A stretch of 27,730 nt of DNA from an uncultured archaeon (GTDB lineage: Archaea > Asgardarchaeota > Thorarchaeia > Thorarchaeales > Thorarchaeaceae): NCBI GenBank assembly GCA_964590575.1, contig CAZPWM010000036.1:1-27730 (forward strand), written 5' to 3'. A model generated the notes under the pieces. That model ran no database searches. It was not told where the DNA came from and saw only the letters and a program-made list of their open reading frames with translations. The translations under genes and the position numbers were made by a program. Below, one piece after another: positions 585 through 26,424 of the stretch. Numbering within the stretch: position 1 is the first letter of the stretch; every line of letters begins with the position of its first letter.

Positions 585-1712
585 CTATCTCTGTGTTTGA
601 GCGGCCCAATCATACGCTTCCTGGTTAGGTGTGCATCCACCACATTTGTGGCACCCAGCAACAGTATTTTCTGGGTTCAAGTCATTGTTATAGAGAATCG
701 TTCCAATCCTCTTGTAGAATCCAATCGAGGTGTCTAAATCACCGACATATGCAGGAATATAATTTGCAAGTTGACTACCATGAGACGGTCGAACCGGAGC
801 CACAACGGGTAAGACGCCAACCTCAGCTAATTCCTCAACCAAAGCAAGTGTCTTAGAAGTATCCTCTCCGAGACCATATAGTAAGAATGTGCTGACATTC
901 CCTCTACCAAAGTAGTCAAGGGCATACTGCCAGCTTCTATGATACAATTCAAGAGAGCCGTACTGAAATTTTCCTGGGCACATCTCTTCTCGGGTCGATT
1001 CGTCAGCGCTTTCAATGTGTATGCCAACAGCATTTGCACCTGCATTAGCTACATCGCGAATCATACCAATTTCCATTGGAGGTTCAAACTGAACCCCTAT
1101 TGGAATATTACTGACTTGTCGTATGGCTTCAATAATTCTGCGTAGGGGTTCTAAACTAGCATCAGGAGTTTCAGGTGTTCCTGTCGTTAGCAGCATGTCT
1201 TCAACAACACCCTCACGCTCTGCTGCAAGCAGGACTTCAACAAGTTGATCGGGAGTCTTTTCAAGAACACTATCATCTGACAAATGCGATATAGGAATTG
1301 TGCAGAATTTGCACTGGGTTCCATTACTCCAATACCTACATGCTTGATAGATTGTCGTTGCAAGGGTTTGAGTTCCATGCAATAAGGCAATTTTGTAATA
1401 CGGGACCCCCTCATTGGTAGTTAAATCGTAGAACTTGGGTCTCGGAACCATCTTCAATTCAATTTCATTATCGTATATCCATGTGCTTGAATCATCCGTT
1501 GGTTCAAGAGATGCAGAATCGTACTTCTTAGCAATCTCTCCTTGCCTTATAGGGACTCCACATGGTTTGCCATTTGGAAGAACAAAGTACCGAGCCCCTA
1601 CTGGTCCAGCTCCCCCTTTTCGACCTTTCCACTGATCGTCTGGAAGACTAGCACCTTCTGTTAGAAGTCTCACCTTCAGGCGAAGTATATCTTCTGCGTC
1701 CATGACAGTCAC
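585..1712 (-). CDS. Radical SAM protein, MSMEG_0568/NitD-like family
   Basis: Extended CX8CX2C motif 'CRYWSNGTQCKFC', preceded by 'GVPYYKIALLHG..TLATT..Q'; N-terminal 'RKGGAGP'; C-terminal 'AGCHKCGGC'. All are recalled as typical of MSMEG_0568-type radical SAM proteins. Alternative start ATG 1703. Confidence 0.8.
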   Translation of the reverse strand: MTVMDAEDILRLKVRLLTEGASLPDDQWKGRKGGAGPVGARYFVLPNGKPCGVPIRQGEIAKKYDSASLEPTDDSSTWIYDNEIELKMVPRPKFYDLTTNEGVPYYKIALLHGTQTLATTIYQACRYWSNGTQCKFCTIPISHLSDDSVLEKTPDQLVEVLLAAEREGVVEDMLLTTGTPETPDASLEPLRRIIEAIRQVSNIPIGVQFEPPMEIGMIRDVANAGANAVGIHIESADESTREEMCPGKFQYGSLELYHRSWQYALDYFGRGNVSTFLLYGLGEDTSKTLALVEELAEVGVLPVVAPVRPSHGSQLANYIPAYVGDLDTSIGFYKRIGTILYNNDLNPENTVAGCHKCGGCTPNQEAYDWAAQTQR

Positions 1713-1731
1713 AATTTCCTATTTTCGAATC

Positions 1732-2856
1732 CTAATCTGCTTTCACATCGCGGCCCTTACTACCTCGCATTACGAACTCAGGCAAGTCAAGAACCGTTAT
1801 GGTTTCGCCTGATTGTGAATCTAACATTTCCTTACAAAATGGACACGATGTCACAAGATAACGTGCATCAATATTTTTGGCCTGACGTATTCTTTCCGCT
1901 CCTATCTTCTTTGCATGCTCTGGAAATAGGGTTCTAAGCCCTGCACCATTGCCACAGCACATCGCATTATCCCTATTCCGTTCCATCTCAACAACAGCTG
2001 TTCCAGATACTCGTTCAATCACATCTCGTGGTGCGTCATAGATACCGGAATGGCGTCCAAGATGACAAGGATCATGAAATGAAACGGATCCATTGAAATC
2101 TGCGGTTGGTAGCTTATCCAAGGATTTAGACAGGAATTCACTGATGTGTCGTACAGGTTTGTTGAGTTCGTGTCCATTTTTAGTGTAGTCAGAAGTGAGT
2201 GCCCGATAGCAACCAGGGCATGTTACTACAATCTCCTCAGCATCTATGCTATTTAATGCCTCAACATTGTGAGCTGCCAGATCCAGAGCAGACTTTAAAT
2301 CTCCAGTCCGAAATAGTGGACTTCCACAGCACCACTCATCAGGTGTGATCTTAACCGAATATCCAAGTTGTTCAAGAAGGGATACCGTATCTTGAGCAGA
2401 GGTTTTCTCACGATACGCGGCTGTGCAACCTGTGAAGTACAGGATTTTTGGACCCTTTGAGTCACCAGTCTTTATCCAATCATTCCGTTTTGTGTGATTT
2501 TCGCCAAATGGGTTGTGGGTTTCTTTGACAAGGCTTGCAAGTCGAGATATACCCGCAGGCTGCCGGTTTGTCCTCACCAATTCCAGTCGTTTGTTTTCGA
2601 CAAGAGCAGCTATGTCAATTTCCGGTTTGCACCATATGAGACAGTGACTACATTCAAGACACTGATATAGCACTTCCACTCCACGTTCATCTATCGCACG
2701 AGTGCCAATGAGTTCCTGATGTAATAGTAGTGCACGTCCGTGAGGTGTAGGTGAGTCTGATCTCCAGGCAAAAAAGGTTGGACACACATGCCGGCACATC
2801 TTTGGACACGCAGCACACATCCTCACTTGTTCTGCAATCATATCTGGTTCCATCAA
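1732..2856 (-). CDS. Fe-S oxidoreductase, HdrD/GlpC/GlcF-like (ferredoxin-type motifs + 2 CCG domains)
   Basis: 'CAACPKMCRHVCP', 'CLECSHCLIWC', CCG domains 'FTGC...WCCG...TCPGC' and 'FHDPCHLGR...MCCG...SCPFC'. Start overlaps upstream stop (ATGA). Confidence 0.85.
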   Translation of the reverse strand: MMEPDMIAEQVRMCAACPKMCRHVCPTFFAWRSDSPTPHGRALLLHQELIGTRAIDERGVEVLYQCLECSHCLIWCKPEIDIAALVENKRLELVRTNRQPAGISRLASLVKETHNPFGENHTKRNDWIKTGDSKGPKILYFTGCTAAYREKTSAQDTVSLLEQLGYSVKITPDEWCCGSPLFRTGDLKSALDLAAHNVEALNSIDAEEIVVTCPGCYRALTSDYTKNGHELNKPVRHISEFLSKSLDKLPTADFNGSVSFHDPCHLGRHSGIYDAPRDVIERVSGTAVVEMERNRDNAMCCGNGAGLRTLFPEHAKKIGAERIRQAKNIDARYLVTSCPFCKEMLDSQSGETITVLDLPEFVMRGSKGRDVKAD

Positions 2857-4280
2857 TCACGTGCCCCCAGTCCAAGTTTTCCAGGATTCATAATTCCATT
2901 GGGATCCAAGACGTCTTTGATCTTCTTTAAAACCAAAAAACCGGACCCGAGTTCATCAGCTATATATGTGCTACGAGAGAGACCAACCCCATGTTGATGA
3001 CTCATTGTACCACCTTCGCGAAGACAAGCAGCTACTCCAACATCCCAGATTCTCTTGTACGTCGCCCAAGCTGTTTCTGCATCAGGTTGTGAAGTAAAGA
3101 AGATCATGTAGATGCTGCCGCCATTCGGATACATATGTGAAAAATGAGACATTACTACTGCATCTTCTGCTTCCATAACCTCCTTCATGGCATGGTATAC
3201 ATTTTCCAGCTTATCATAGGTAGCAACAATGTCGATTGTGTCTCCTATTGCATACCCACCAGTAGTCAGGCGGGTCGGATAGTACATATCATACCGATGT
3301 TCCCACCACCGTTTCGATGGACCTTCTCCTCGGTCAGTCCCACCCTCCTCTAGACATATTTTATTCGACTGCAGCTCGTCTATTTCGACTTTCTTTAAAG
3401 CCCCATCAAAAGCTAGAAGAAGCATACAGTGGCCTTCTTCGAATTCAAAGTGCAGTGAGAAGCTCAAAGCAGCATCCTCAGGATCGTAAAGTCGCACCAC
3501 AGATGGGAAAATGCCTGCTCTGAAGATCTTTCGAATAGCCTCAAGTCCGCTGTGCACATCAGGAAAACTAATACTTCTAAATCTGCGTTCTTCGGGGATT
3601 GGAAATAGCCTCAGTGTTGCACTTGTGATAATTCCAAGAGTTCCCTCGGACCCAATGAAGATTTGACGAAGATCAGGACCGACAGAATGTCGTGGAACGG
3701 CTTTTGTTTCAATTATAGACCCATCGGGAAGGACAACTTGGAGTCCCAATGTTAGGTCCTCGATTTTACCATAGAGAGAGGACATTGAGCCTCCTGATCT
3801 GGTCGCAATGAAACCCCCAATGTTAGATGCTCGAAGCGAAGTTGGTGTGTGTCCGGTGGTGTATCCAACCCGATTGACCTCTTCCTCAAGATCGATTCCA
3901 ACAACTCCGGCTTGGACTCGAACGAGCATGGAAACATGGTCAATTTCTAGAATTTTATCTAGACGCTTAAGGTCTAATTGAATCCCACCATAAATTGGAA
4001 GTGTTCCACCACATGTACCTGCTCCACCACCGACAGGGGTCACAGGGATTTTCAACTTGTTTGCTACAACTAATATTTTGGAAACCTCATCAACAGTTCC
4101 GGGAAATACAATAAGGTCAGCAAGAGGTAGTATCTCGCCAGCTCGGATTTTTGCTTCACTAAGAGGCCATGCATCGTGGGCATTTAGAATTTGGTCAGTT
4201 TTGTGTTTGGTTACATGTTCGGAACCAACGATTTTTGCTATTTGCCCAAAGGCATCCTGCTTCGTTTTTTCATCAAGCAT
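2853..4280 (-). CDS. FAD-binding oxidoreductase (VAO/GlcD superfamily), alkyl-dihydroxyacetonephosphate synthase-like
   Basis: PCMH FAD-binding motifs 'PVGGGAGTCGG', 'GHTPTS..SNIGG.IATRSGG..S..YGKIED', 'GPDL...FIGSEGTLGIIT'; AGPS-like C-terminus 'SHFSHMYPNGGSIY', 'SHQHGVG', 'LDPNGIMNPGKL'. SD AGGAGTGA precedes ATG 4280 (ORF track start 4316). Confidence 0.8.
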   Translation of the reverse strand: MLDEKTKQDAFGQIAKIVGSEHVTKHKTDQILNAHDAWPLSEAKIRAGEILPLADLIVFPGTVDEVSKILVVANKLKIPVTPVGGGAGTCGGTLPIYGGIQLDLKRLDKILEIDHVSMLVRVQAGVVGIDLEEEVNRVGYTTGHTPTSLRASNIGGFIATRSGGSMSSLYGKIEDLTLGLQVVLPDGSIIETKAVPRHSVGPDLRQIFIGSEGTLGIITSATLRLFPIPEERRFRSISFPDVHSGLEAIRKIFRAGIFPSVVRLYDPEDAALSFSLHFEFEEGHCMLLLAFDGALKKVEIDELQSNKICLEEGGTDRGEGPSKRWWEHRYDMYYPTRLTTGGYAIGDTIDIVATYDKLENVYHAMKEVMEAEDAVVMSHFSHMYPNGGSIYMIFFTSQPDAETAWATYKRIWDVGVAACLREGGTMSHQHGVGLSRSTYIADELGSGFLVLKKIKDVLDPNGIMNPGKLGLGARD

Positions 4281-4287
4281 ATACCGC

Positions 4288-5526
4288 TCACTCCTTCTTA
4301 GGTAGTCTTTGGGCAATGAACACCGTCAAATCATCTACTTCAACGGAACTCCCAGCCTTGAAGAGATTACTCTCTATTTGCGCTGTGCACAAGGGACATG
4401 GAGTTACTATTCTATCGGCTCCAGTCTTCTTAATTGCCTCTAGATTCTCCTTGACGACGGCATTGGATACAGTACTGGAATGGTATGACACCATACCGCC
4501 TCCACCACAGCAAGAGTCATACGCTTCTGATTCAGAAACCCTTACACCAGGCAACTCTTTGAGAATATTTAGTGCATGATCCATAATCTGCCGAGATGTG
4601 TGTCTTATGAGGTGGCAAGGGTCATGAACGGTAACATGAACTTTTGATATCTCTGGAGATTTCTTCAAAACAGTTCTCAATTTTTCTAATCCTATGTCCT
4701 CAACAATGAATTCCAAGATATGAACAGTTGGAACACCCCATTCATTGTGATGTGAAATATCCGATAGATTAGATGTGCAACCAGCGCAGGTGGTAACAAC
4801 TTTCTTGACTCCTAGAACCTTGACTTTCTCTTTAAGCCTTTTAGCTAAGGATTTTGCTGTTTCATCATCCCCCATTAATCGAGCTGGTAGTCCGCAACAT
4901 GACATCTCATCTAGTAGCGTATAGTCAATATCAAAATAGTCTAAGATGACTTTAGCCGCCTCTCGTACTTCTTGAGCCCGTTCTTCAGCCTGACAACCGG
5001 GATAGAACAAAACTTCAGCCCTGTCAACAATCCGGTCCTCTATGAATGGCAGACGAAGCCGTTCGAGTCTCATGTCCCTGCTCTCAGCCTTCTCGGTCTT
5101 GTCCTCCCATGGCTCGAATGCCAGCGAATGTTCGCTGAGAAGTTCTAGAACAATGTGGAATCCCTTAGGGACAAGATCAGGACGATACTCAAAGATTCTA
5201 GCACGAATGAGATTGACTACCTCGGGGATATCGACATTCTTTGGGCAGACTTCACGACAGGTTCCACATCCAGTACACAAGTACACTATGTCTGCAGTGG
5301 ACCAGTACTCTGGGGGTGAACGACTCAATTCAACTGCGATACTTCTCGGTCCACTGAATCGGTCAACACCTACTGCAGCAACAACGGGACAATGATTTAT
5401 ACAAAGACCACAGTTTATGCATCTCTCTACGGATCTGATGATTTCAATCTCATTCCGATGATAAGGAGTTATTCGCTCTTTCTTGAGCGTAGTTTTAATG
5501 TAATCATAGGCTTCTTCTTCATCCAC
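4288..5526 (-). CDS. glpC: Anaerobic glycerol-3-phosphate dehydrogenase subunit C-like Fe-S protein
   Basis: Two CxxCxxCxxxCP motifs (CINCGLCINHCP, CTGCGTCREVCP) and two CCG domains; directly downstream of glpAB. Start probably GTG 5526 (or TTG 5535); ORF track extends to 5559. Confidence 0.75.
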   Translation of the reverse strand: MDEEEAYDYIKTTLKKERITPYHRNEIEIIRSVERCINCGLCINHCPVVAAVGVDRFSGPRSIAVELSRSPPEYWSTADIVYLCTGCGTCREVCPKNVDIPEVVNLIRARIFEYRPDLVPKGFHIVLELLSEHSLAFEPWEDKTEKAESRDMRLERLRLPFIEDRIVDRAEVLFYPGCQAEERAQEVREAAKVILDYFDIDYTLLDEMSCCGLPARLMGDDETAKSLAKRLKEKVKVLGVKKVVTTCAGCTSNLSDISHHNEWGVPTVHILEFIVEDIGLEKLRTVLKKSPEISKVHVTVHDPCHLIRHTSRQIMDHALNILKELPGVRVSESEAYDSCCGGGGMVSYHSSTVSNAVVKENLEAIKKTGADRIVTPCPLCTAQIESNLFKAGSSVEVDDLTVFIAQRLPKKE

Positions 5527-5527
5527 T

Positions 5528-6901
5528 TCAGGCAACCCCCTTGATTGCGTCAATTGCATTCTTTACGGCTGAGTACCCTGTTGTGGCTGCGACACCCAAC
5601 CCACTCTTTTCAGTGGAATAATCATATCCTGCTAGGATTGAGCCAGCAGCGAACAGATTTCTAGCCCATTCTACTCCATCCTCCCTTACTGGTCGAAAGT
5701 GTGGGTCAACTGTCAAACCACAGGAAAATACAGGTTGCCCTTCTGGACTGATTGAAACACGATTTGTGTAGCGAGAGGGTATAACATCATTTGCTGAATG
5801 ATATGCTCCCGTAACTGTCATCTGATTAAAAACGGGTTCTCGGATTCCATTTTGGTCCCCCTGTAATCCACCTCCTATGAATTTTCCAGAGGCTAGAATC
5901 ACTGCCTTCGTGTTTATTGTCAGCTCTCTACGTGGAGCCTTAGCTATAACTTGGGTCACCTGATTTTCCTTCATAGTGTAGGATATTGCTTCGTGACCGA
6001 CCATTAGCTTCCCGCCACTCTTTTTGAATAATCCTTCCAGAGCCAATTGAAGTCTCATACCAGGAACGGATGGTGGAAAACCTAGTAACTCAAAGACCTC
6101 CACGCCAAGTGACTTCTCCAATATGTTCTTGTTCTCAATTGCGAACTTCAGTCCTAGTACTGGTGGAAATGCCACATGAGTAGCTCCGAATTGGTCAACT
6201 TGTTTCTTCAGCTGTTCTATTATATCCTCAATAGAGTCTTTATGATCAAAATGTCGAGCGATCTCAATAGACGAGAGGTTGTATGTTTTTCCAAAGGGAG
6301 CTAACTGAAGTACGCATCCTCCCACTTTTCGGGGTGAGGCACCGATTGCTATGCGATCCTCGAGGTAGGTTTTTGCTGCGATTGATGAACTGAAATCAGG
6401 ATACCCAGTAAATCCAGCAAAGAGGAGAACACTGTCTTGATTTTGCTCAAGGGTCTCTGAATACATTGTTTTTTGGACCAGACATGTTGGCTTTGTTGTG
6501 CCAAGTATTGTGATTGGATGAATATTTGATTCAAATGAGCCAATCAATGGGGCAATTGTTTCACTAAGACTAGTCATAAGCCAGAGGAGGGATTCTCTTG
6601 CCCGACCTATAATCGCATTTGCTACTTCATCGGGTTTGACGTCCTCACCATAACCGATTATACTGTATGGATGAAGAGGAAGCAGTCCAGCGACTGCTGT
6701 AAGTCCCTCTTCTGGTGATGAAAATGGCTCGGTAGCTTCGGGAAGGTAGCCCATAACATCTATGGCTCCGGAGGAGTACGCAGTTGCACTCTGACCCTTT
6801 CGTAACAAGATTGTGGAGAAACCATTCTTTGAAGCGATAGTACCTGCAACTAGACCAGCCATTCCCCCACCAATCACAATGATATCGCATTCCATGTCCA
6901 T
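5528..6901 (-). CDS. glpB: Anaerobic glycerol-3-phosphate dehydrogenase subunit B
   Basis: 'DIIVIGGGMAGL', 'GQSATAYSSGAIDVMG', 'LGTTKPT', 'PPSVPGMRL', 'LASGKFIGGGL', 'NLFAAGSILAGYD..EKSGLGVA.TTGY' match GlpB; adjacent to glpA. Confidence 0.9.
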   Translation of the reverse strand: MDMECDIIVIGGGMAGLVAGTIASKNGFSTILLRKGQSATAYSSGAIDVMGYLPEATEPFSSPEEGLTAVAGLLPLHPYSIIGYGEDVKPDEVANAIIGRARESLLWLMTSLSETIAPLIGSFESNIHPITILGTTKPTCLVQKTMYSETLEQNQDSVLLFAGFTGYPDFSSSIAAKTYLEDRIAIGASPRKVGGCVLQLAPFGKTYNLSSIEIARHFDHKDSIEDIIEQLKKQVDQFGATHVAFPPVLGLKFAIENKNILEKSLGVEVFELLGFPPSVPGMRLQLALEGLFKKSGGKLMVGHEAISYTMKENQVTQVIAKAPRRELTINTKAVILASGKFIGGGLQGDQNGIREPVFNQMTVTGAYHSANDVIPSRYTNRVSISPEGQPVFSCGLTVDPHFRPVREDGVEWARNLFAAGSILAGYDYSTEKSGLGVAATTGYSAVKNAIDAIKGVA

Positions 6902-8548
6902 CTAATTCCCCTCCTCCCATGGCTTTGGATCATAGTCAACATCAGATTGGTCGAGGTTTCCAACACAGGAATACATGCCTTGAGCAAGCTCTTCTTGAGC
7001 AAGTTGCTCTCCTCTCATTGATGGACGAATGCCCTTCCATCTCTCTGCTCGGAAGTCCAGAATGTCAACAAGAAAGTCATCACCTTCGAGGTCTAGTTCC
7101 TCAGATAAAATTGCAGCTGCTTTGAAAGTGCAAAAAGTGCCTTGGCATGGTCCCGTGCCTAATCGTAATCTTCTACGAAGGTCATTCAGCGTTTGTGGAA
7201 ACTCATTTCTTATTGCATATCGAATTTCAGCCTCGATGATGGGTTCACATATACAAATTGTAGTCTTCCAATCAGGATTGTCTTTTGTTAATTCAAGAAC
7301 CTTGACCATCTCAGTCCCACGGCGTGCTCGCATTCGCTCTAGAGAATGCATACTGATACCATATTGAGCAGAGAGCGCTTCAATGTCCACATCATCCTCA
7401 TTACCAGGTAGAGGTACTTCATGCGTCGTGCATTTAGCATCAATCCCTAATTTCCTAACGACAATATTAGTGGCTGCTTCCGCCATATGCCGGCACATCA
7501 CAAGCTTACCACCTGTGAAGCTGATCATTCCATTTTCATGATCTATCACCTGGTATCCACGAGTCACCTTGTCCTCAGGAACATTCCATTCTGGTACCAG
7601 AGGACGGACACCAACCATTGTACGGATAATACGCGCCTCACGAATGGATGGTATTATCGACTCAATGCTCTGAAGCAGATACTCAATCTCATCATACGTA
7701 GCAACCAATGTATCAGGATTTTCCCATGTATCCAACGCAGTAGTACCAAGGAGGGTTGTATTCTCGTGAGGGAAGAGATACACCCATCGTCCATCAATTG
7801 CCTTTACGGTGATTCCAACATTCACAACTCTACGGTCTAGGATTACATGAGTACCTTTGTTGAGTCGAAGATCTAGGTTTGCGCCACTAGTTCGGGCAAT
7901 CTTGTGAGCCCATGGTCCAGCTGCATTCACCACAAGTTTTGTACTAACCGTTTCTGTTTGGCCAGAAACTCGATTATAGAATATCACCCCTCGGATTTCA
8001 TCTGTAGCCTTTTCAAAACCAATGACCTCACAATAGGTTTTGATTTCAGCCCCATGATTTCTTGCATCGAGCGCCTGAAGGAGACATAAACGAAAAGGGT
8101 CAATGAAGAATTCTTCATAGTACACACTGGCGATTACATCAGGATGAATCAATGGCTCAATTTCCAAGGTTGCTTCAGGTGTTATGAACATCATCGCAGG
8201 AACATCTCGCTCCTCTGCATGCTCAGAATAAGCGTCAATATAATCACCGTCACTGGCTGCAACACTCAAGTCAAGGAGAGGGACAAGAGTAGGATTCTTC
8301 ATGATAATATGACGAGCAATTCGGTTTAGATGCACGACTTCCGAAGAGCACATCTTCATTATCTCAGGTTCTCCTCTGTACTTGAGCCCTGAGGATATCA
8401 TTCCAGCACAAGTGCCTACTGTAGCGGAAGCTATGTCATCACGTTCCAATAGCAGAGTTCTCAGACCCCGCATTGCACAGTCGCGAACTACAGCAGTACC
8501 AGTACTTCCTCCACCAATTACGACAACATCGAATTTAGAGTCGCTCAT
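6902..8548 (-). CDS. glpA: Anaerobic glycerol-3-phosphate dehydrogenase subunit A-like (FAD + C-terminal BFD-like [2Fe-2S])
   Basis: 'DVVVIGGGSTG..VVRDCAMRGL', 'VVNAAGPWA', 'KGTH', 'LLGTT', 'GVRPL', 'GGKL'; C-terminal 'ICICE...RLRLGTGPCQGTFC', 'RWKG'. Confidence 0.88.
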   Translation of the reverse strand: MSDSKFDVVVIGGGSTGTAVVRDCAMRGLRTLLLERDDIASATVGTCAGMISSGLKYRGEPEIMKMCSSEVVHLNRIARHIIMKNPTLVPLLDLSVAASDGDYIDAYSEHAEERDVPAMMFITPEATLEIEPLIHPDVIASVYYEEFFIDPFRLCLLQALDARNHGAEIKTYCEVIGFEKATDEIRGVIFYNRVSGQTETVSTKLVVNAAGPWAHKIARTSGANLDLRLNKGTHVILDRRVVNVGITVKAIDGRWVYLFPHENTTLLGTTALDTWENPDTLVATYDEIEYLLQSIESIIPSIREARIIRTMVGVRPLVPEWNVPEDKVTRGYQVIDHENGMISFTGGKLVMCRHMAEAATNIVVRKLGIDAKCTTHEVPLPGNEDDVDIEALSAQYGISMHSLERMRARRGTEMVKVLELTKDNPDWKTTICICEPIIEAEIRYAIRNEFPQTLNDLRRRLRLGTGPCQGTFCTFKAAAILSEELDLEGDDFLVDILDFRAERWKGIRPSMRGEQLAQEELAQGMYSCVGNLDQSDVDYDPKPWEEGN

Positions 8549-8709
8549 GCATATCTTTTCCTGAGAGATTGCTTCTAGGATTAAGCTGAACGTTGATAAC
8601 GTACGTACAATACTAAGGTTTCGGATTGACTAAGAAACCTGAAAAGAACAAACAATAACCAAGATTACGTTAAAAGGAGAAATTCTGGGATTTGTTTGGT
8701 GAATATTAA

Positions 8710-8958
8710 TTGCCTAACTATGACCTTGGTACATTAGTAGTCGACAGCCATGACGTGAAAAAACTCACACAAGCCCTTGACATTCCTGATCACCGTTTTG
8801 AAGACATTGTAAACCTTGCTAGACAGGCTTGGGAGCATGAGGATACAATCAGTGAGTCGATCGAGTATATTGCTCAGAATGCAAGTGGATCAGAACTGGT
8901 ATTAGCACTCGTATTCTTTGGTCGAATCTGGGAAGACAATCATGAAGATGAAGAATAA
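8710..8958 (+). CDS. Small acidic hypothetical protein (82 aa)
   Basis: Fills the gap between glpA and the kinase; GGTGA SD before TTG; protein-like helical composition; no family recognised. Confidence 0.7.
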   Translation: MPNYDLGTLVVDSHDVKKLTQALDIPDHRFEDIVNLARQAWEHEDTISESIEYIAQNASGSELVLALVFFGRIWEDNHEDEE

Positions 8959-8960
8959 TT

Positions 8961-10418
8961 CTATGATATTGCTTCTAGTATATTTCCAATCTCTGAGTTC
9001 ATGAGTTTGTTAAAAATCGGAAATTGTTTCTTGTATACTTCTACGTTTTCAGGAATAGGCTCTCGCCGTTCCTCGATATGAAACATGTTGTCAACAGCCT
9101 CAGAATAGCCCCCATAAATTCCAGTTCCGATGGTACCAAGAATGGCTGCACCAATTACAGTGGAGTCTCGAACTTTGGGTAGAACAATAGGTCTGTTAAT
9201 GCAGTCAGCCTGTATCTGGCGCCATAATGGAGAGTTTGCTCCACCACCGCTGATACGGAGCTCATTGAACTCAATATCAAGCATCCCTTCCATCATTTCA
9301 AGGTACATAGAAATGATATACCCATTGGCCTCGAGGATCGCTCTCGCAACATGAGCCTTCGTATGCCCGAAACCTAAATGGTAGAATATTCCCAAATTGT
9401 ATGCCATGAATGGGAACATCACAAGACCGTCGCTACCAGCAGGCACTGATGCTGCCGAGGATTCGATGATCTGGTAGACATCTTTCTCAGTCTGAGCTGC
9501 AAGAGCCATCTCCGGTTCGCAGTATTGGTCTCTATACCACTTATAGGTGAGTCCAGTTCCAGGGGTAACTCCTTCAAGAATCCACTTTCCCGGCATTGCT
9601 GATGGATTGCAATACATCACATATGGCTCTTCCATGAATTCATCGAGATGAGTTATTACGAAGGTACCAGTGCCTGTTGTGGCTTTTACTATACCAGATT
9701 CAATGACCCCCATACCCAAGGCGGAGCACTGTTGATCTCCACTTCCCAGAATAACCGGGGTCCCTCTTCTCAGAGATGTGGCTTTCGAAGCCTCAGAATT
9801 AATCTCGCCTATGGTGGAACCTGAGTTCTTGATTTCAGCCAGTTTGTCAATTGGTATTCCGGTGGCTTCACATAGATCTTCAGACCACTGAAGTGTTTCA
9901 TGGTCAATCGGACCAAACCTGGCATCAGCAGGTGAACTAACCATAGCGCCACAGAGCCGGTTGTTGATGAAAGCATCAAGCTGCAGCCATTTCCATGTCT
10001 TCTTGAAGAAATCGGGGCGATTCTCAATGAACCACATTAGTTTTCTGACGCTACCTCGTGGACCAATCTCAGCAGCCATCTCTTTGCTTTTTACAGTTGA
10101 TCGGTTATCTATCCAAGTTACAGTAGGAGCCAAAGCATTACCATCCCTATCTATAGGAGTCATTGAGTCTCTGGTCGTTGAAACAACAACACCAACGATA
10201 GCATCTGGTCCATGCTTGCAACCAGCAAGGGCTCTCTGCATTGTGTTCGCTGACGTGCGCCAAAATGTGTCTGCTACCTGTTCATGTATCTTTACATCCT
10301 GTGGTTTGGGAGGATATTCCTCATAGGCTTTACTGACCTCACGCCCTTCTTCATCCACAATAACAGAACGTGTTCCTGTTGTTCCAATATCAAATATCGC
10401 AAAGAGACGGTCACTCAT
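8961..10418 (-). CDS. FGGY-family carbohydrate kinase (glycerol kinase/xylulokinase/YgcE-like)
   Basis: 'FDIGTTGTR', 'STTRDS', 'WIDNRS', 'GSGDQQCSALGMG', 'TGTGTF', 'ARAILEA', 'ISGGGANSPLWRQIQAD'. Start ATG 10418 (MSDRLFAIFD) preferred over 10457. Confidence 0.9.
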   Translation of the reverse strand: MSDRLFAIFDIGTTGTRSVIVDEEGREVSKAYEEYPPKPQDVKIHEQVADTFWRTSANTMQRALAGCKHGPDAIVGVVVSTTRDSMTPIDRDGNALAPTVTWIDNRSTVKSKEMAAEIGPRGSVRKLMWFIENRPDFFKKTWKWLQLDAFINNRLCGAMVSSPADARFGPIDHETLQWSEDLCEATGIPIDKLAEIKNSGSTIGEINSEASKATSLRRGTPVILGSGDQQCSALGMGVIESGIVKATTGTGTFVITHLDEFMEEPYVMYCNPSAMPGKWILEGVTPGTGLTYKWYRDQYCEPEMALAAQTEKDVYQIIESSAASVPAGSDGLVMFPFMAYNLGIFYHLGFGHTKAHVARAILEANGYIISMYLEMMEGMLDIEFNELRISGGGANSPLWRQIQADCINRPIVLPKVRDSTVIGAAILGTIGTGIYGGYSEAVDNMFHIEERREPIPENVEVYKKQFPIFNKLMNSEIGNILEAIS

Positions 10419-10509
10419 AGGTATCACTATCAATATTAGAATTGTACAGAGGGGCATATAGATTGTCCTACCATGAGAGTTATCTTGTGTTTTGGTAACC
10501 GGATAGATA

Positions 10510-11445
10510 ATGTCAGACTATCCAGCACATATTGAGATTGAACCACGTGTACATCTCATCAGAGGACAAAATGAAGCTCGATTTCCAGAGGCAAACACAC
10601 TCTTAATAGACGATGAGATACTCACTCTTGTAGACGCAGGTTCAAATCCAGAACAGGTCTTCTTGACTCTTCGAGACCTAGGTCATCAACCAGAAGACCT
10701 CGAACGTATAGTGCTAACGCATTATCATGCGGATCACAAGGGCTATGCTGCTCATCTGCGACAACTATCCGGTTGCGAAGTGTTGTGTCATCCACTAGCA
10801 AAGGATGGAGTTGAACATTTCCAGACTATGATGAAATACATAGGTATTAACAATCCAGAAACCAAAGCGCACTGGTTGAACCTGCTAAACTCCAGATTAC
10901 CACATGTACGATATGACTACATAGTGGATGGTGTATTCCGTGATGATAGACCCATTGATTGTGGCGAAGTTCAACTCATTCCTCTTCATTCACCGGGTCA
11001 CACACATGACCATACTTGTTTTGGCATCAATGGTTTAGAAAAAATACTTCTTGTCGATATAGACCTCACAGAGTTTGGACCTTGGTATGGGAATGTTGTG
11101 AGTGACATAGGGCATTTCAAGAGGTCTATCGAACAGATTATCGATTTACAACCAAAAATGGGTATTAGCAGTCACCTTCTAGATCCCGTGACGAACGGAC
11201 TTGAAGAGCAACTTAGAAGTTACTTAGCATACTTCCAGAAACGCGATGAAGAAATTCTACGCCATATCGCTGAAGGAATTGACACTGTGAAGGAGCTTGC
11301 CAAAATACCTATTATATATCCTCGAATTCCGCATCCGGTCTATCTCGTTTTTGAGGAATTTATGATTGACAAGCATATTGAACTTCTGTCCAAGAATGAC
11401 CTTGTTCTTCTTGAGGATGGACACCTTCAGGTTCTGAGGACCTAG
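10510..11445 (+). CDS. Metallo-beta-lactamase-fold hydrolase
   Basis: 'LVDAG', HxHxDH 'THYHADH', 'SPGHTHDH', 'LVDID', 'ISSH'. Confidence 0.88.
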   Translation: MSDYPAHIEIEPRVHLIRGQNEARFPEANTLLIDDEILTLVDAGSNPEQVFLTLRDLGHQPEDLERIVLTHYHADHKGYAAHLRQLSGCEVLCHPLAKDGVEHFQTMMKYIGINNPETKAHWLNLLNSRLPHVRYDYIVDGVFRDDRPIDCGEVQLIPLHSPGHTHDHTCFGINGLEKILLVDIDLTEFGPWYGNVVSDIGHFKRSIEQIIDLQPKMGISSHLLDPVTNGLEEQLRSYLAYFQKRDEEILRHIAEGIDTVKELAKIPIIYPRIPHPVYLVFEEFMIDKHIELLSKNDLVLLEDGHLQVLRT

Positions 11446-12251: not shown

Positions 12252-13379
12252 TCACTGAAGCGTTTTGGGAAGGCTATAGCAATCTCCAAATTCTTGCTGA
12301 AGTTTTTTCAACTCCTCTCTAACCACATCGAGGCCAAGCCGTTCAATAGTTTCAAAGGGCCCTTCCTTATAGTTAGAACCCAGTTTCATGGCCTTGTCAA
12401 TATCCTCCTTTGATGCAATCCCGGTCTCGAATTCAATCATAGCCTCTCTCAGATAGGGCATGATGATTCTGTTGACCAACCAATCTGGATCTGCACCTTT
12501 TGGTTCTTCAAGCGACCGTTTCTGGCCATCTTCATAAGCATAGAAACCCTTGCCAGCTTTCCTACCAATTCTTCCTTCCTCTACATACTTCTTGAGTATT
12601 TCAGGAACTTTGTAACAATCTCCCAATTCTCTCTCAAGAGTACTCCCGGTGCCAAGTGATACATCCAAACCAACAAAGTCAGTCAGTTCCAATGATCCCA
12701 TTGGTGTACCGAACTTCTCTTTCATGGCTGTGTCAATCTCTTCAGCACTTGCTAAGCCTTGTTCATTGATCTGTAATACTGCTCTCGAAATCTGCGCACG
12801 GAGCCTGTTTACAATGAATCCTGGGCTGTCTATTGCCTTCACGGTAATCTTTCTTTGCTTCTCACCAACTTCTAAAGCAGTCTGAATAGTATCGTTGTTT
12901 GTTTCTTTTCCTATGATAACCTCTAGAAGCTTCATAGCAGGTACTGGAGAGAAGTAGTGCATCCCAATTACCTTGGCCGGTCGATTTGTGACCTTTCCAA
13001 GCTCGGTTATACTAAGAGAAGATGTGTTGGAGGCAAGGATCGTGTGAGGCTTTGCAGCATGGTCCATCTCTTTGAACAGTTTCTTCTTGACCTCCATATT
13101 CTCGAAGACAGCCTCTATGACCAAATCTACATCGCTGACTGCTTCACTCAGATATGTTGTAGTCGCTAGCCGACTGATGATATTCTCACCATCTTCAGGT
13201 GATAACTTCCCTCGTTTGACTCCTGATTCCACATAATTCTTAACCCTTGACAAACCTCGATTAATCGCGTTTTCATCCAAATCTGTCATTATCACATCAT
13301 ATCCGGAGGCTCGTGAAACATATGAGATTCCAGCCCCCATTAGACCGGCACCAACAACGGCTATCTTGTTGACCTTCAT
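12252..13379 (-). CDS. 3-hydroxyacyl-CoA dehydrogenase with duplicated C-terminal domain, paralogue 1
   Basis: 'GAGLMGAGI', 'IEAVFE', 'ASNTSSL', 'GMHYFSPVPAMKLLE' (His-Glu), 'PGFIVNR', 'GRKAGKGFY', second HAD_C repeat 'LVNRII...IDKAMKLG...GPF'. ATG 13379 overlaps upstream TGA. Confidence 0.92.
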   Translation of the reverse strand: MKVNKIAVVGAGLMGAGISYVSRASGYDVIMTDLDENAINRGLSRVKNYVESGVKRGKLSPEDGENIISRLATTTYLSEAVSDVDLVIEAVFENMEVKKKLFKEMDHAAKPHTILASNTSSLSITELGKVTNRPAKVIGMHYFSPVPAMKLLEVIIGKETNNDTIQTALEVGEKQRKITVKAIDSPGFIVNRLRAQISRAVLQINEQGLASAEEIDTAMKEKFGTPMGSLELTDFVGLDVSLGTGSTLERELGDCYKVPEILKKYVEEGRIGRKAGKGFYAYEDGQKRSLEEPKGADPDWLVNRIIMPYLREAMIEFETGIASKEDIDKAMKLGSNYKEGPFETIERLGLDVVREELKKLQQEFGDCYSLPKTLQ

Positions 13380-14152
13380 TTCTTTAACTCCTTTTTTCTG
13401 AAAGCTAATCTCTCGTATTGTTTCCCCCAACGCTCATCATACAATAATCCCTCAAGTGGTGGTCGACTGGGTCCTAGGTGTCTTGATTTCATTGGAATTC
13501 CGATGCAAAATGCTGTCAATGGAGTCCATATCGGTGGAATTCCAATCCTATCACGAATTAACTGAGTGTGTCGTGAGTCTGAGCATATCAGAGCCTCGTA
13601 GCCGCAGCCATAACCCATTGCTGTTGCGACCATCCACATATTCTGGATAGCCATGCCTGCAACAACAGAACCGAAAAGTTCGTTGGGATACAATTTTGTG
13701 GCATCATGCCATGCAGGACACGCGCACACAATAATAACAGTGTCACTCTTCTCCGGGTAGCGAAAGAGGTCTCCTTCTCGAAGTCGAGAAAATACAGCGG
13801 CTCGAAACTCATCCTCTATGTACCAATTTCTACCACTTGTGAGCTCGAAAGGAGCTGATCCAAAAACTGTCTGCGCGTTTTCCTGTGCGATATCTGCTAG
13901 GTATTCCTTTGTATCTTGATCATCTCGAATCACGGTTAATCGAATCATCAACATGTTTTCTGGACTTGGTGCATGTCGCGCAGCCTCTAATATCAATTCA
14001 ATATGTTCATCAGGGATCCTTCCACCAGTAAATTCACGGATAGAGCGTCGAGACCTAATATGCTTCATAACCTGTAAACCTGAAGCAATCTTTGTGTCTT
14101 CTACCTCTCTGCCGCTAACATCCAAACTTCCTTTGGTATCTGTTGTCATCAT
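13376..14152 (-). CDS. Nitroreductase-family flavoprotein, paralogue 1
   Basis: FMN-binding 'IRSRRSIREF', 'ILEAARHAPS..N', 'MAIQNMWMVATAMGYG'. Confidence 0.88.
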   Translation of the reverse strand: MMTTDTKGSLDVSGREVEDTKIASGLQVMKHIRSRRSIREFTGGRIPDEHIELILEAARHAPSPENMLMIRLTVIRDDQDTKEYLADIAQENAQTVFGSAPFELTSGRNWYIEDEFRAAVFSRLREGDLFRYPEKSDTVIIVCACPAWHDATKLYPNELFGSVVAGMAIQNMWMVATAMGYGCGYEALICSDSRHTQLIRDRIGIPPIWTPLTAFCIGIPMKSRHLGPSRPPLEGLLYDERWGKQYERLAFRKKELKK

Positions 14153-20019: not shown

Positions 20020-20547
20020 TCAGTCCTCCTTAATTATCCAGTCGTCCACAGCCTCTTGCATGGCAGCGTCAACAGAACTAGCCCAGAAATTACCTTTTTT
20101 CGATTTCACTTTATCGAGAAAGTTATCATATTTGTCCCCATCCATGAGCACTACAATGCGCCCCTTTCGGTCGTTGATGAAGGATTGATGAATCATCTTC
20201 TTAGAGGTCCAATATTCAGCCTCGATATCACCAACTTTCAGTCGCGGGTAAAAAGGCCATGATCCACTTGGATGAGGTCTGAAAGATTTGCCTCCAGACT
20301 TCCACTTCTTCACTTTATCGCCCTCGGCTTCCTTAAATCCGGGTCGGAAAGGCCATTGTGGTACATAACGAAAGCCCTTTTCGCCATCAACTACACCGCC
20401 TGACCAACGACCAGTATACACACGTCCACCCGTGTTGTCACAGAACTGCTCCATAACAACTTCGATGAAGCCTTCAGGAGTAAGACCAGCTTCTTCGGCC
20501 ATCTTCTTCATGTTCTCAAAAGTTTCGCCTTCAAAATTGACGTCCAT
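20020..20547 (-). CDS. Hypothetical protein (175 aa) with possible RHH-like segments at both termini
   Basis: Tightly coupled in the operon (1 nt from upstream stop, GGAGG SD); RHH-like beta-helix-helix patterns judged by eye only. Confidence 0.75.
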   Translation of the reverse strand: MDVNFEGETFENMKKMAEEAGLTPEGFIEVVMEQFCDNTGGRVYTGRWSGGVVDGEKGFRYVPQWPFRPGFKEAEGDKVKKWKSGGKSFRPHPSGSWPFYPRLKVGDIEAEYWTSKKMIHQSFINDRKGRIVVLMDGDKYDNFLDKVKSKKGNFWASSVDAAMQEAVDDWIIKED

Positions 20548-20548
20548 A

Positions 20549-21310
20549 TCACTTACCCTCCTTCCTGAATGCTAGCCTTGTGTATGGCTTGCCCCAACGT
20601 TCCTCATACATGAGCCCTTCGAGAGGGGCTCTGCTGGGACCTAACGCTCTTGGGGATACACGTTTGCCAATACAAAACGCTGTCAGCGGTTCCCAGATTG
20701 GTGGAATTCCAAATCGGTCTCTGATGAGTTGAGCATGTCGAGGATCTGAAGCGACAAGAGCTTCATATCCGCAACCATATCCAAGTTCAGTGGCTACCAG
20801 CCACATATTCATTATTGCCATTCCACAAACTACAGATCCGAATAGTGAATTGGGGTAAAGATATCCAGCATCATGCCAAGCTTCACTTGCACAAACAATA
20901 ATCGCAGTGTCACTTTTCTCAGGATATCTGAATAGCTCTCCATCCCTCAGTCGGGCATAAACTGCCGCTCTGTAAGGATCAGTGATAAACCAGTTTCTTC
21001 CACTTGTAAGTTCAAATGGAGCTCCTCCAAAAGCCGTCTGAGCCATTTCCTGAGCTATATCCGCCAGGAATTCCTTACTCTCTTGATCATCGCGTATGAC
21101 AACAAAACGCATCATTAACATATTCTCAGGACTCGGCGCATGTCGTGCCGATTCCAATATCAACTCGATGTGTTCATCGGGTATTTTTTCGCCAGTGAAT
21201 TCTCTGATAGAGCGTCTTTCTCGAATCCATTTCAGGGATTCAAGCTCTTGTGTTGTTTTCACTCCATCTTCAGATTCACCAGCAGCTTTACTCTCTGCAT
21301 CTGAAGCCAT
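20549..21310 (-). CDS. Nitroreductase-family flavoprotein, paralogue 2
   Basis: 'IRERRSIREF', 'LESARHAPSPEN', 'MAIMNMWLVATELGYG'; colinear with and highly similar to 13376-14152. Confidence 0.88.
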   Translation of the reverse strand: MASDAESKAAGESEDGVKTTQELESLKWIRERRSIREFTGEKIPDEHIELILESARHAPSPENMLMMRFVVIRDDQESKEFLADIAQEMAQTAFGGAPFELTSGRNWFITDPYRAAVYARLRDGELFRYPEKSDTAIIVCASEAWHDAGYLYPNSLFGSVVCGMAIMNMWLVATELGYGCGYEALVASDPRHAQLIRDRFGIPPIWEPLTAFCIGKRVSPRALGPSRAPLEGLMYEERWGKPYTRLAFRKEGK

Positions 21311-21613: not shown

Positions 21614-22693
21614 CTAATGCTTCTTAGTCTGCTTTAGGATTGCATCCAAATCAAGAACTTCGCTCACAATATTCTCTACAATTGCTAGCTTTTCTTTGTT
21701 ATCTACAGTGACTGTCCCAATCAATCCATCCACAATATGGCCGGTCCCATATGTGTCATGTGCTGTAACCATAATTGGAACACCTCGTTCACGGGCACGA
21801 GCGACAGTACCAACATCAGGACCCAGTCCACCTGTAAGAATAAGCAAGTTGGTGTCTGTTTCTAGAGCTGTGAGACAAATATCAGTTCTATCCCCGCTAG
21901 TAATGACAGCTTTATCACGTACGCGTCGAAACCACCTGAGTGCATTTTCTGGAGCCATGCTTCCAACCATGAATTGATCTATGAGTAGATCCATCTTGTC
22001 AGTGTCACCAATAATCTCACCATCAAGAGCTCTTTGAATTTCTCGGACTGTAGGACTGAATAACTCGCTATTTAGATAAATAACGCCAACTAAACCTATA
22101 GACCGCCCTTCTAGAAACGGACCTATTTGTTCTATGACAGTTTTCTTGAGCATTGGTGGAACCATATTAAGAACAATCTTTACATTTTCGATTCCCTGTG
22201 TTCTGAAGAGCTCAATCTGGAGAAGGATATCATCAATCGCAGTGATATCGGGAAAGTTGACCAGACATATCACTGTTGCATTGAGTTCCTTGGCTATCTG
22301 TGGTGTTGAGAGGTCCACGTGCATAAGATGCCAGGATGCCTTTGTTCCTTCAACAATCATGTAGTCTAATCCTTCTGAGACCTTTGAGTAGCTTTCTTTA
22401 ATCAGTTTCAACAGTTCATCATGACCAATGAGAATCAGTTCATCATAGCTTGAGTTTGTTCGAACAATAGGACAGAGACATGAAAGAGGGTGGTCCAGTC
22501 CGAGAAGCTCTTTCATAATAGCTGCATCTTCATCGATGTCCTCTGAATTTGTACTATAATCATAACTCTTGGATCCTACAGGTTTGAAGTACCCGACAGA
22601 TTTGCCCTTCTCCTTAAGCTTGGCTGCAAGACCGATAGCAACCATAGTCTTTCCAGTAAGTGTGTCTCCACTTATTACAATATTTTCTACCAT
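21614..22693 (-). CDS. Phosphotransacetylase N-terminal-like protein (BioD-like P-loop + DRTGG domain), no Pta catalytic domain
   Basis: Walker A-like 'GDTLTGKT', 'VGYFKPVG', 'IVEGT', DRTGG signature 'VGSM...ITSGDRTDI...LILTGG'. SD GGAGGGTGA before ATG 22693. Confidence 0.85.
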   Translation of the reverse strand: MVENIVISGDTLTGKTMVAIGLAAKLKEKGKSVGYFKPVGSKSYDYSTNSEDIDEDAAIMKELLGLDHPLSCLCPIVRTNSSYDELILIGHDELLKLIKESYSKVSEGLDYMIVEGTKASWHLMHVDLSTPQIAKELNATVICLVNFPDITAIDDILLQIELFRTQGIENVKIVLNMVPPMLKKTVIEQIGPFLEGRSIGLVGVIYLNSELFSPTVREIQRALDGEIIGDTDKMDLLIDQFMVGSMAPENALRWFRRVRDKAVITSGDRTDICLTALETDTNLLILTGGLGPDVGTVARARERGVPIMVTAHDTYGTGHIVDGLIGTVTVDNKEKLAIVENIVSEVLDLDAILKQTKKH

Positions 22694-22697
22694 TTTA

Positions 22698-26337: not shown

Positions 26338-26424
26338 TAACTACTAAATGGCCACTTGTAATAATCAGGAGCTATCCTGTCGAGCGTTTTGAGAGAACGC
26401 AAGCTTGAGTTGGAGAAAAGGAAC

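Follow-up and report, generated by a model that had tools for sequence, protein, structure and literature searches.

An Asgard archaeal operon linking an FGGY kinase, a GlpABC-type dehydrogenase and an AGPS-like flavoprotein with a predicted Fe-S partner, possibly for oxidation of a glycerol-like compound

Contig CAZPWM010000036.1 of an uncultured archaeon of the family Thorarchaeaceae (assembly GCA_964590575.1) carries a run of minus-strand genes that encode an FGGY-family kinase, the three subunits of a GlpABC-type glycerol-3-phosphate (G3P) dehydrogenase, a flavoprotein resembling alkyl-dihydroxyacetonephosphate synthase (AGPS) and an Fe-S protein here called CCG2. The window that we analyzed is this whole contig (27,730 nucleotides; 27.7 kb), which comes from a 3.4-Mb genome bin that is 91% complete, and close homologues of its proteins carry the name Thorarchaeota. 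The gene run is real and strongly conserved in this Thorarchaeota family. We tentatively favor the reading that it is an operon whose enzymes would oxidize, step by step, a glycerol-like compound other than plain glycerol, with a net oxidation wired to CCG2 as the third step; we regard this as plausible, though far from secure.

The kinase gene (8961 to 10457; Pfam FGGY_N and FGGY_C) probably starts at 10418 (Met14); codons 1 to 13 are hydrophobic and look like an over-extended open reading frame (ORF). Downstream on the same minus strand lie the genes for a GlpA-type flavoprotein with a [2Fe-2S] BFD domain (6902 to 8548; Pfam DAO, DAO_C, and Fer2_BFD), the GlpB subunit (5528 to 6901), a GlpC-like Fe-S subunit (4288 to 5559; Pfam CCG and Fer4_8, with two CxxCxxCxxxC motifs and two CCG domains), the AGPS-like (YgcU-type) flavin adenine dinucleotide (FAD) protein (2853 to 4280; 475 amino acids [aa], ATG start, Pfam FAD_binding_4 and FAD-oxidase_C), and CCG2, a GlpC/GlcF/HdrD-like Fe-S protein (1732 to 2856; two Pfam CCG domains). 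By ORF coordinates, glpA abuts glpB (0 nt), glpB overlaps glpC, 7 nt separate glpC from the AGPS-like gene, the latter overlaps CCG2 by 4 nt, and 19 nt separate CCG2 from a radical SAM gene. ORF calls and Pfam and NCBIfam matches recovered every gene named in a preliminary description of this DNA, and the coordinates agree with the spacing of 0 to 19 nt or overlap that it gave from glpA to the radical SAM gene.

At a search threshold of E ≤ 1e-60, 116 of the 201 sampled genomes of the phylum had a match to the flavoprotein, as did 38 of the 43 genomes of its own family. We then mapped the window proteins onto 20-kb stretches around the flavoprotein gene from 20 genomes, 10 of the same family and 10 of other Asgard families. 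The order kinase, GlpA, GlpB, GlpC, flavoprotein, CCG2, radical SAM protein, and GNAT acetyltransferase was kept in all 10 other same-family loci and, because the same order recurs in 10 of 10, the operon linkage is far beyond chance. In the same 10 loci, a metallo-beta-lactamase (MBL)-fold gene and an enoyl-CoA hydratase gene stand beside the kinase. CCG2 directly adjoins the AGPS-like gene in each of the 20 Asgard loci (10 of 10 in other families), while an FGGY gene lies within the locus in 8 of the 10 loci from outside the family (and also in locus L057), and GlpABC stands between kinase and flavoprotein in 4 of them. The radical SAM and GNAT genes occur in 0 of these 10, the pair being confined to the window's own family. 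The conserved core is the kinase, the flavoprotein, and CCG2, usually with a G3P-dehydrogenase-type enzyme, and the linkage of kinase, G3P-dehydrogenase-type enzyme, and AGPS-like protein noticed in the preliminary description is conserved in Asgard archaea and also in several phyla of bacteria.

The GlpABC architecture is complete in the one operon, with GlpA (DAO, DAO_C, and BFD), GlpB, and GlpC (two [4Fe-4S] motifs and two CCG domains). The BFD [2Fe-2S] domain of GlpA and the two [4Fe-4S] motifs and two CCG domains of the GlpC-like protein are likewise found in Escherichia coli and haloarchaeal GlpABC and in FngABC, the ferredoxin- and NAD-dependent G3P oxidoreductase of Pyrococcus furiosus (Schut et al. 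2026, PMC13689815); the abstract and distribution section of that paper do not mention Asgard archaea. Relative to E. coli and haloarchaeal GlpABC, GlpB scores above its equivalog cut-off (TIGR03378, 240.7 bits; cut-off, 174.15), whereas GlpA (TIGR03377, 422.5 bits; cut-off, 552.8) and the GlpC-like protein (124.7 bits; GlpC cut-off, 278) score below theirs, the best NCBIfam match of the latter being TfrB (181 bits; cut-off, 385). In locus L049, from another family of the same order, a DAO-plus-BFD, Pyr_redox_2, and DUF1667 set with the FngABC architecture replaces GlpABC. This set lies at L049:4964-8160 (plus strand), together with a major facilitator superfamily transporter gene, beside CCG2, the AGPS-like gene, and the kinase, in a genome without a GlpA orthologue.

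GlpA is the only GlpA/GlpD-type gene in the genome, a search of which gave a single match, so GlpABC, as the sole G3P-dehydrogenase-type enzyme, probably also serves general G3P catabolism. Many Asgard genomes carry the kinase, the AGPS-like gene, and CCG2 with GlpABC not nearby, and no GlpA orthologue was found in two of these genomes, G108 and G007, both 96% complete (best E value, 1e-11). These observations fit an alternative in which two units merely stand side by side, namely, an ordinary glycerol unit of kinase and GlpABC that makes dihydroxyacetone phosphate (DHAP) and a separate AGPS-like/CCG2 dehydrogenase, e.g., for sn-glycerol-1-phosphate or DHAP. We consider this alternative quite unlikely: the linkage recurs with three non-orthologous G3P-dehydrogenase forms (GlpABC, FngABC-like, and GlpD), which is hard to explain by chance, and G108 itself bears an FngABC-like set beside the module. 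The residues of the linked kinases, described below, also bear on it.

Several comparisons place the flavoprotein on the AGPS side and not on the GlcD/D-lactate dehydrogenase side, within a clade that is prokaryote wide. Its best solved relatives in a single-sequence search were AGPS structures (2uuu, E value of 4e-63; 4bby, E value of 1e-60), with D-lactate dehydrogenase at 1.5e-45, and a profile built from 30 clade members scored 399.8 and 361 bits against AGPS and 283 bits against D-lactate dehydrogenase. The AlphaFold2 model of the protein (predicted local distance difference test score [pLDDT], 91.6) retrieved mammalian AGPS chains as its top Foldseek matches (template modeling [TM] score, 0.88 to 0.90; for the first match, 0.90 by query length with 29% identity), and mouse D-lactate dehydrogenase came next (0.85). 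A 105-row tree, made with the IQ-TREE quick search under LG+G4 with SH-aLRT support only and with six near-identical family rows left out, set a 68-row AGPS-like clade that includes the window protein apart from 37 GlcD-like rows by a branch with 100% support; eukaryotic and myxobacterial AGPS are not in this tree, and the position relative to true AGPS is taken from the profile scores. The 475-aa length matches that of homologues. E. coli YgcU is 31% identical over its full length (E value of 3e-67).

Residue patterns point the same way. The AGPS-like clade has the signature H144, R161, Y170, R263xxD, W325..R329, HxSHxY, Y391, and [ST]HHH[GA], and the window protein carries all of it except at Q429, where its family has SHQHG (HQH) at the His loop and most other clade members have [ST]HHH[GA]. 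The GEHG motif and the His at position 391 that mark the GlcD-like rows (n = 37) are both absent from the window protein. R263 aligns with the catalytic Arg of AGPS (Dictyostelium R352, guinea pig R419), Y391 aligns with its Tyr (Y508 and Y578, respectively), and across the clade the equivalents of these two residues vary little or not at all. In the PDB alignments, the Arg, the Tyr, and the SHHHGVG stretch, which we take to be the His-His-His loop of AGPS, are seen in both AGPS structures; H144, R161, and Y170 can be read in the guinea pig alignment, and the HxSHxY stretch can be read in that of Dictyostelium. R352, Y508, and R447 of the Dictyostelium enzyme are important for AGPS catalysis (PMC3509576). 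R447 aligns to a Thr with an Arg one residue on (YPTRL versus PYIRDF), in a low-confidence loop of the model (pLDDT of ~52 at residues 331 to 340). The label "AGPS-like" used in the preliminary description is therefore borne out by tree, residue signature, profile search, and fold search.

Two candidates that had looked promising as true AGPS because of their length, protein P0229 and a 633-aa Kofleriaceae protein, were rejected as orthologues, their 190 and 234 bits against solved AGPS being no improvement on the 217 bits of the window protein. Many of the best-scoring cluster representatives (P0121, P0123, and others) are 800 to 1,000 aa long with two FAD_binding_4 domains, i.e., tandem AGPS-like units, and such tandem units followed by a CCG gene are found in L064 (Myxococcota) and L095 (Kofleriaceae).

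The protein is no canonical AGPS, as the gating domain is missing, a GNPAT-type gene was not found, and the protein has an Fe-S partner. At 475 aa, compared with 584 to 658 aa for AGPS, it lacks the N-terminal domain, whose gate-keeping helix controls entry to the alkyl channel in AGPS (PMC3509576); the alignments cover only chain residues ~90/128 to 583 of 2uuu and 170/179 to 653 of 4bby, and the AGPS insertion after residue ~275 is likewise missing. In the 91%-complete genome, there were 0 matches to PF01553, the family of GNPAT/PlsB/PlsC-type acyltransferases, and no clear fatty acyl-CoA reductase, PF07993 (NAD_binding_4) giving four weak matches (39 to 53 bits, in frames of ~350 aa). Close homologues are automatically annotated as "alkyldihydroxyacetonephosphate synthase," and this name and the retained catalytic Arg and Tyr would agree with a canonical AGPS that makes G3P-based alkyl ether lipids in an archaeon by exchanging the acyl group of acyl-DHAP for a fatty alcohol. 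Given the missing domain, the lack of clear matches to these gene families in the genome, the obligate Fe-S partner, the catabolic operon context, and a passage in a preprint that reports no evidence of a plasmalogen pathway in Archaea (10.1101/2025.10.10.681575), we regard such a function as highly improbable. The reverse route to G3P-based ether lipids that the preliminary description had offered as an option is unlikely for the same reason, as the 91%-complete genome yielded no member of the GNPAT/PlsB-type acyltransferase family.

CCG2 has 18 Cys residues in the same pattern as the GlpC-like protein, with two ferredoxin-type motifs and two CCG domains, and one of the cluster representatives (P0144) joins an AGPS-like domain to Fer4 and CCG domains in a natural fusion. 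When the AGPS-like protein and CCG2 were modeled as a complex, the score was 0.90, versus 0.00 for the highest of three controls; 58 of 80 solved complexes attain that score, as do 2 of 110 mismatched pairs, frequencies that apply here only approximately because the alignments were our own. The runs agreed in at least 95% of contacts, with partner pLDDT of at least 91, and the modeled interface sets the ferredoxin domain of CCG2 (residues 9 to 78) on the FAD-binding domain of the AGPS-like protein. In Asgard loci, CCG2 thus appears to be an obligate and probably bound electron-transfer partner of the AGPS-like protein; the preliminary description had listed this second Fe-S gene, correctly, and had given it no role. 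Electron-transfer partners also accompany distant members of the clade, as E. coli YgcU sits with electron transfer flavoprotein and FixCX-like genes. The pairing with an Fe-S protein would therefore point to net redox chemistry and not to the redox-neutral exchange of AGPS, and we read the AGPS-like protein as the putative catalytic subunit of an Fe-S flavoprotein dehydrogenase.

The substrates for which FGGY kinases are known are soluble. The kinase of the window falls below all NCBIfam equivalog cut-offs (LsrK, 224.8 bits with a cut-off of 528; XylB, 208.7 with 380; GlpK [TIGR01311], 141 with 590), and its best solved relative is LsrK (5ya0, 173 bits), with archaeal glycerol kinase at 133 bits. 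A 25-row tree, built by the quick method and subject to long-branch warnings, places the Asgard module kinases in one starred clade. Four module kinases, those of L065, L071, L076, and the Loki-type locus L057, cluster with an E. coli FGGY gene that we take from its position (4.116 Mb) to be glpK; the L060 kinase groups with the E. coli kinase at 3.728 Mb, and YgcE groups with a Bacteroidales kinase. We take R83, E84, W103, Y135, D245, and F270 to be the glycerol contacts of E. coli GlpK (positions confirmed by index). The window kinase keeps the equivalents of R83, W103, D245-Q-Q, and F270, has Asp in place of E84, and has no equivalent of Y135. Other Asgard module kinases have Ala at the E84 equivalent, and the GlpK-clade kinases of bacterial modules likewise lack E84 and mostly lack Y135. 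This pattern suggests a substrate that is glycerol-like at the phosphorylated end and different at the other end, that is, a modified glycerol.

The loss of these contacts in the linked kinases, including those of the GlpK clade, argues against plain glycerol and thereby against two unrelated units standing side by side, a possibility that is helped by the placement of the linked Acidimicrobiia kinase within the GlpK clade. On contig C45, this genome has another FGGY kinase (L150:6926-8455, minus strand) that keeps all six GlpK contact residues; it passes the XylB cut-off (390.5 bits; cut-off, 380.25), fails that of GlpK (364 bits; cut-off, 590), and adjoins a LarA-like gene. Most "glpK" homologues of Loki- and Thorarchaeota have been classed as carbohydrate kinases, with glpA/D present (Manoharan et al. 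2019, PMC6737245).

The association of the AGPS-like clade with these enzymes extends beyond Asgard archaea. A pattern scan based on a 7-row alignment, with one genome per species, returned at least 80 loci, some with AGPS-like and some with GlcD-like genes; the counts describe this sample. Among the matches listed, a GlpA/GlpD-like gene lay within 5 kb in 22 of the 43 non-Asgard AGPS-like loci versus 0 of the 37 GlcD-like loci and a kinase did so in 20 of the 43 versus 1 of the 37, counts that include related, hence non-independent, genomes and omit two kinases that fell short of the threshold. A tally of neighboring Pfam domains over 119 ORFs from 29 dereplicated loci (again among the matches listed) was headed by DAO (7), DAO_C, the alpha-glycerophosphate-oxidase C-domain (6), and FGGY (5). 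Overall, the AGPS-like clade is found beside G3P-dehydrogenase-type genes and a kinase, FGGY or DAGK type, in at least five phyla. The linked kinase is of the FGGY family in Acidimicrobiia, Bacteroidales, and Caulobacterales and of the DAGK_cat/YegS type in Mycobacterium, Nocardia, Rhodococcus, Kitasatospora, and one Saprospiraceae genome (two of these were checked by Pfam). In an Actinomycetales locus (L071:6652-8844, minus strand), a gene with an Fe-ADH_2 domain, presumably of the family that holds the glycerol-1-phosphate dehydrogenases, lies between a GlpA-like gene and an FGGY kinase and next to the AGPS-like gene.

The pathway that we favor, in which a glycerol-like compound other than plain glycerol is oxidized stepwise, would begin with phosphorylation of a primary hydroxyl (C3) by the FGGY kinase. 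GlpABC would then oxidize the C2 hydroxyl to give a DHAP-type head group, which the AGPS-like protein may bind through its Arg, Tyr, and His-loop residues while acting at C1 through the flavin. Unlike the AGPS reaction, this third step would be a net two-electron transfer, with CCG2 re-oxidizing the reduced flavin through its [4Fe-4S] domain. This would yield a C1-oxidized (aldehyde-level) triose phosphate, any substituent on O1 being released as an alcohol, and the aldehyde could be taken further by an aldehyde dehydrogenase that is encoded downstream in relatives. Because the linkage survives swaps of kinase type and of G3P-dehydrogenase type, the order C3-C2-C1 seems the most economical. 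The preliminary description had arranged kinase, GlpABC, and AGPS-like enzyme in the same sequence, which is a reasonable reading of a linkage conserved across phyla.

As for the substrate, the preliminary description had proposed a long-chain ether lipid. In such an O2-independent ether-lipid catabolism, a 1-O-alkylglycerol would be phosphorylated by the kinase and oxidized by GlpABC to alkyl-DHAP, and the AGPS-like protein would cut the C1 ether by water exchange or, in view of its Fe-S partner, by oxidation to a hemiacetal that falls apart, sending the chain to β-oxidation. Besides the three-enzyme logic conserved across phyla, the loss of the far-end glycerol contacts in the kinase and the retention of the AGPS catalytic residues would suit this proposal. 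Among the matches listed, a DAGK_cat/YegS-type kinase, a homologue of lipid kinases, takes the place of FGGY in at least 14 of the 43 bacterial AGPS-like loci; an alpha/beta hydrolase gene follows the kinase in L056; and the enoyl-CoA hydratase gene flanks the kinase throughout the same-family loci. In Pseudomonas aeruginosa, a similar trio and a YegS-like kinase are activated together with the phospholipase C PlcA, although deletion of the trio, PA3026-PA3024, gave no phenotype on glycerol or on the Biolog plates used (Kotecka et al. 2021, PMC8151288).

A number of observations run counter to a lipid substrate, and we consider it unlikely. The N-terminal gating domain of AGPS is absent, the kinase is of the soluble-substrate FGGY type, no operon protein has a predicted membrane segment, and no alcohol dehydrogenase gene was found in the window. 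Cluster representatives of the AGPS-like family include fusions to a PfkB sugar kinase (P0219) and to a Cof-type HAD phosphatase (P0170). The nearest bacterial relatives of the Thorarchaeota flavoprotein, in L060 and L063, have a fucose-isomerase-like gene, KduI/IolB, and a class II aldolase nearby, which looks like sugar catabolism. The aldehyde dehydrogenases of relatives score best against small polar aldehyde dehydrogenases (lactaldehyde dehydrogenase, 221 to 238 bits; cut-off, 650), far below that cut-off and well short of every other one. The link to β-oxidation genes was not seen in the Asgard loci from other families, and the supply of chains to β-oxidation suggested in the preliminary description finds no backing in a gene nearness confined to one family. 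Nothing in these data ties the substrate to a long-chain ether lipid, and compared with a membrane lipid, the phosphate of a small, soluble substituted glycerol or polyol is a somewhat better fit.

A further reading is that the AGPS-like protein and CCG2 form an O2-independent ether-cleaving dehydrogenase, in which the flavin-N5 chemistry of AGPS, acting on 1-O-alkyl-DHAP made from alkylglycerols by the kinase and GlpABC, would pass two electrons to the Fe-S subunit in place of a group exchange. Breakdown of the resulting C1 hemiacetal would then yield an alcohol, fatty or isoprenoid, together with a 2-oxo-aldehyde phosphate. We think this version improbable.

Several points also weigh against the stepwise oxidation that we favor. 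AGPS itself is redox neutral, so that the residues common to both do not prove a dehydrogenase. Many bacterial members lack a nearby Fe-S gene: among the matches listed, a CCG gene was present within 5 kb in 4 of the 43 non-Asgard AGPS-like loci. The complex model is a prediction that does not prove binding and that resemblance to solved flavoprotein/Fe-S assemblies may have favored, and the trees were made by quick methods. The linked kinases are polyphyletic (GlpK type, Asgard type, YgcE type, XylB type, DAGK_cat, and a PfkB fusion); therefore, substrates may differ between subclades. Finally, an opposite-strand ORF (8710 to 8958) occupies the 412-nt gap that separates the kinase from glpA, and cotranscription of the kinase with the rest of the operon is thus presumptive.

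This small ORF (82 aa with an acidic C terminus, plus strand) had no Pfam family match. With tblastn, counterparts of 53 to 72% identity were located in the corresponding gap of 7 of the 10 other same-family loci; in L043 and L048, the gap between kinase and glpA is only ~100 nt and the ORF is missing. One run of a sediment metatranscriptome yielded three short contigs on the kinase (9553 to 10410, with 0 to 3 differences each), pieces 95 to 96% alike on the radical SAM gene and glpB, and a 33-base scrap at the junction of the AGPS-like gene and CCG2 (2871 to 2903), with no cover on the remaining stretch. We rejected these data as proof of operon transcription or cotranscription.

Beyond CCG2, the run continues on the minus strand with the radical SAM protein (585 to 1712; Pfam Radical_SAM) and the GNAT acetyltransferase (48 to 545; Pfam Acetyltransf_1). 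The former is above the cut-off of the variant radical SAM family NF045502 (143.6 bits; cut-off, 125) and just below that of TIGR04043, the MSMEG_0568 family (277.7 bits; cut-off, 303.7). Its Cys residues at 125, 134, and 137 are unlike the usual CxxxCxxC spacing, there is a second motif, CxxCxxC, at 354, 357, and 360, and a search of solved structures gave no relative. The pairing with GNAT presumably parallels the MSMEG_0567/0568 neighbors of that family. The GNAT gene is the last before the contig end, 47 nt farther on (positions 1 to 47). In 3 of 3 relatives scanned, an aldehyde dehydrogenase gene follows GNAT on the same strand (L039:13568-15235, L043:4758-6428, and L045:4673-6445); these proteins are 555 to 590 aa long with an N-terminal extension of ~85 to 120 aa, and an RsmB-like gene comes next. 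As an orthologue in the present genome, the best match was rejected, being only 39% identical and on another contig, so the tail of the operon was evidently not assembled here.

On the other side, the MBL-fold hydrolase gene (10510 to 11445, plus strand; Pfam Lactamase_B) is divergent from the kinase. An assignment as glyoxalase II was unsupported, with weak and mixed matches in the search of solved structures. Farther upstream of the kinase is a β-oxidation run of enoyl-CoA hydratases, hydroxyacyl-CoA dehydrogenases, a thiolase with an OB-fold partner, SCP2, and an ADP-forming acyl-CoA synthetase. The preliminary description was right that such genes are nearby; they lie at higher coordinates, however, upstream in the direction of transcription and not following the operon, with the MBL-fold gene between them and the kinase. 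The run includes two nitroreductase-family genes (13376 to 14152 and 20549 to 21310, both minus strand), and a DRTGG/AAA_26 gene and the ADP-forming acyl-CoA synthetase lie beside it (21614 to 24851). Three ORFs had no Pfam match (20020 to 20547, minus strand, 175 aa; 25378 to 26337, plus strand, 319 aa; and 26389 to 27405, plus strand, 338 aa).

The trio of kinase, G3P-dehydrogenase-type enzyme, and AGPS-like protein is widespread and biochemically unsolved, and solving it would add a new branch of glycerol or glycerolipid metabolism. If the substrate were an ether lipid, the trio would explain the O2-free degradation of these persistent lipids. Were the AGPS-like protein and CCG2 an ether-cleaving dehydrogenase, this would be the first anaerobic route for the degradation of glycerol ether lipids, in sediment Asgard archaea, with oxygen- or quinone-linked counterparts in Actinobacteria and Pseudomonas. 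There are also consequences for annotation. In one study, matches to Myxococcus xanthus Agps by blastp were used as ether-lipid markers, with matches reported in archaeal metagenome-assembled genomes (PMC11868695), and a last-universal-common-ancestor (LUCA) reconstruction counts alkyl-DHAP synthase among its lipid enzymes (PMC11383801). The Asgard form is shorter, predicted to be Fe-S coupled, and set in a catabolic operon; therefore, alkyl-DHAP synthase names should not be read as ether-lipid synthesis.

Literature searches found no published function for ygcU/ygcE or for Rv2251, no work on AGPS together with glpD, glpK, or gylX, and none on the role of an AGPS homologue in Asgard archaea or on an Fe-S partner, although supplementary tables may list such homologues. 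The bacterial trio has already been described and is biochemically unsolved in P. aeruginosa, where GliR activates PA3026 (AGPS-like), PA3025 (a GlpD homologue), PA3024 (an FGGY kinase), PA3023 (the YegS-like kinase), and PlcA; its authors mined databases and on that basis suggested a route leading from glycerol to alkylglycerone phosphate (PMC8151288). By architecture this is the same trio as in the window, a likeness that follows the description in that paper and not sequence comparison. The P. aeruginosa operon differs in having no Fe-S partner, GlpD in place of GlpABC, an added YegS-like lipid kinase, and a coregulated phospholipase C (PMC8151288).

The parallel with E. coli ygcE/ygcU drawn in the preliminary description is real, as YgcU belongs to the AGPS-like clade with the same signature and its cluster contains the FGGY kinase YgcE, the electron transfer flavoprotein (ETF) genes ygcQR, and the FixCX-like ygcNO. 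In that cluster, however, ETF takes the role that a CCG protein has here, a G3P dehydrogenase gene is absent, and YgcE is only 25% identical to the window kinase and falls in another kinase clade. AGPS itself (EC 2.5.1.26; 2uuu and 4bby) shares with the window protein the vanillyl-alcohol oxidase-type fold, the catalytic Arg and Tyr, and HxSHxY (Dictyostelium), whereas at the His loop the window protein has HQH and not HHH, and it has a predicted bound Fe-S partner and a catabolic setting among the genes for a kinase and GlpABC. A design in two parts, a FAD-linked oxidase with a CCG Fe-S protein, is likewise seen in GlcD/GlcF glycolate oxidase and in Fe-S-linked D-lactate dehydrogenase, from which the window flavoprotein differs by SHQHG in place of GEHG, by Tyr and not His at position 391, and by its place in the other main clade of the tree.

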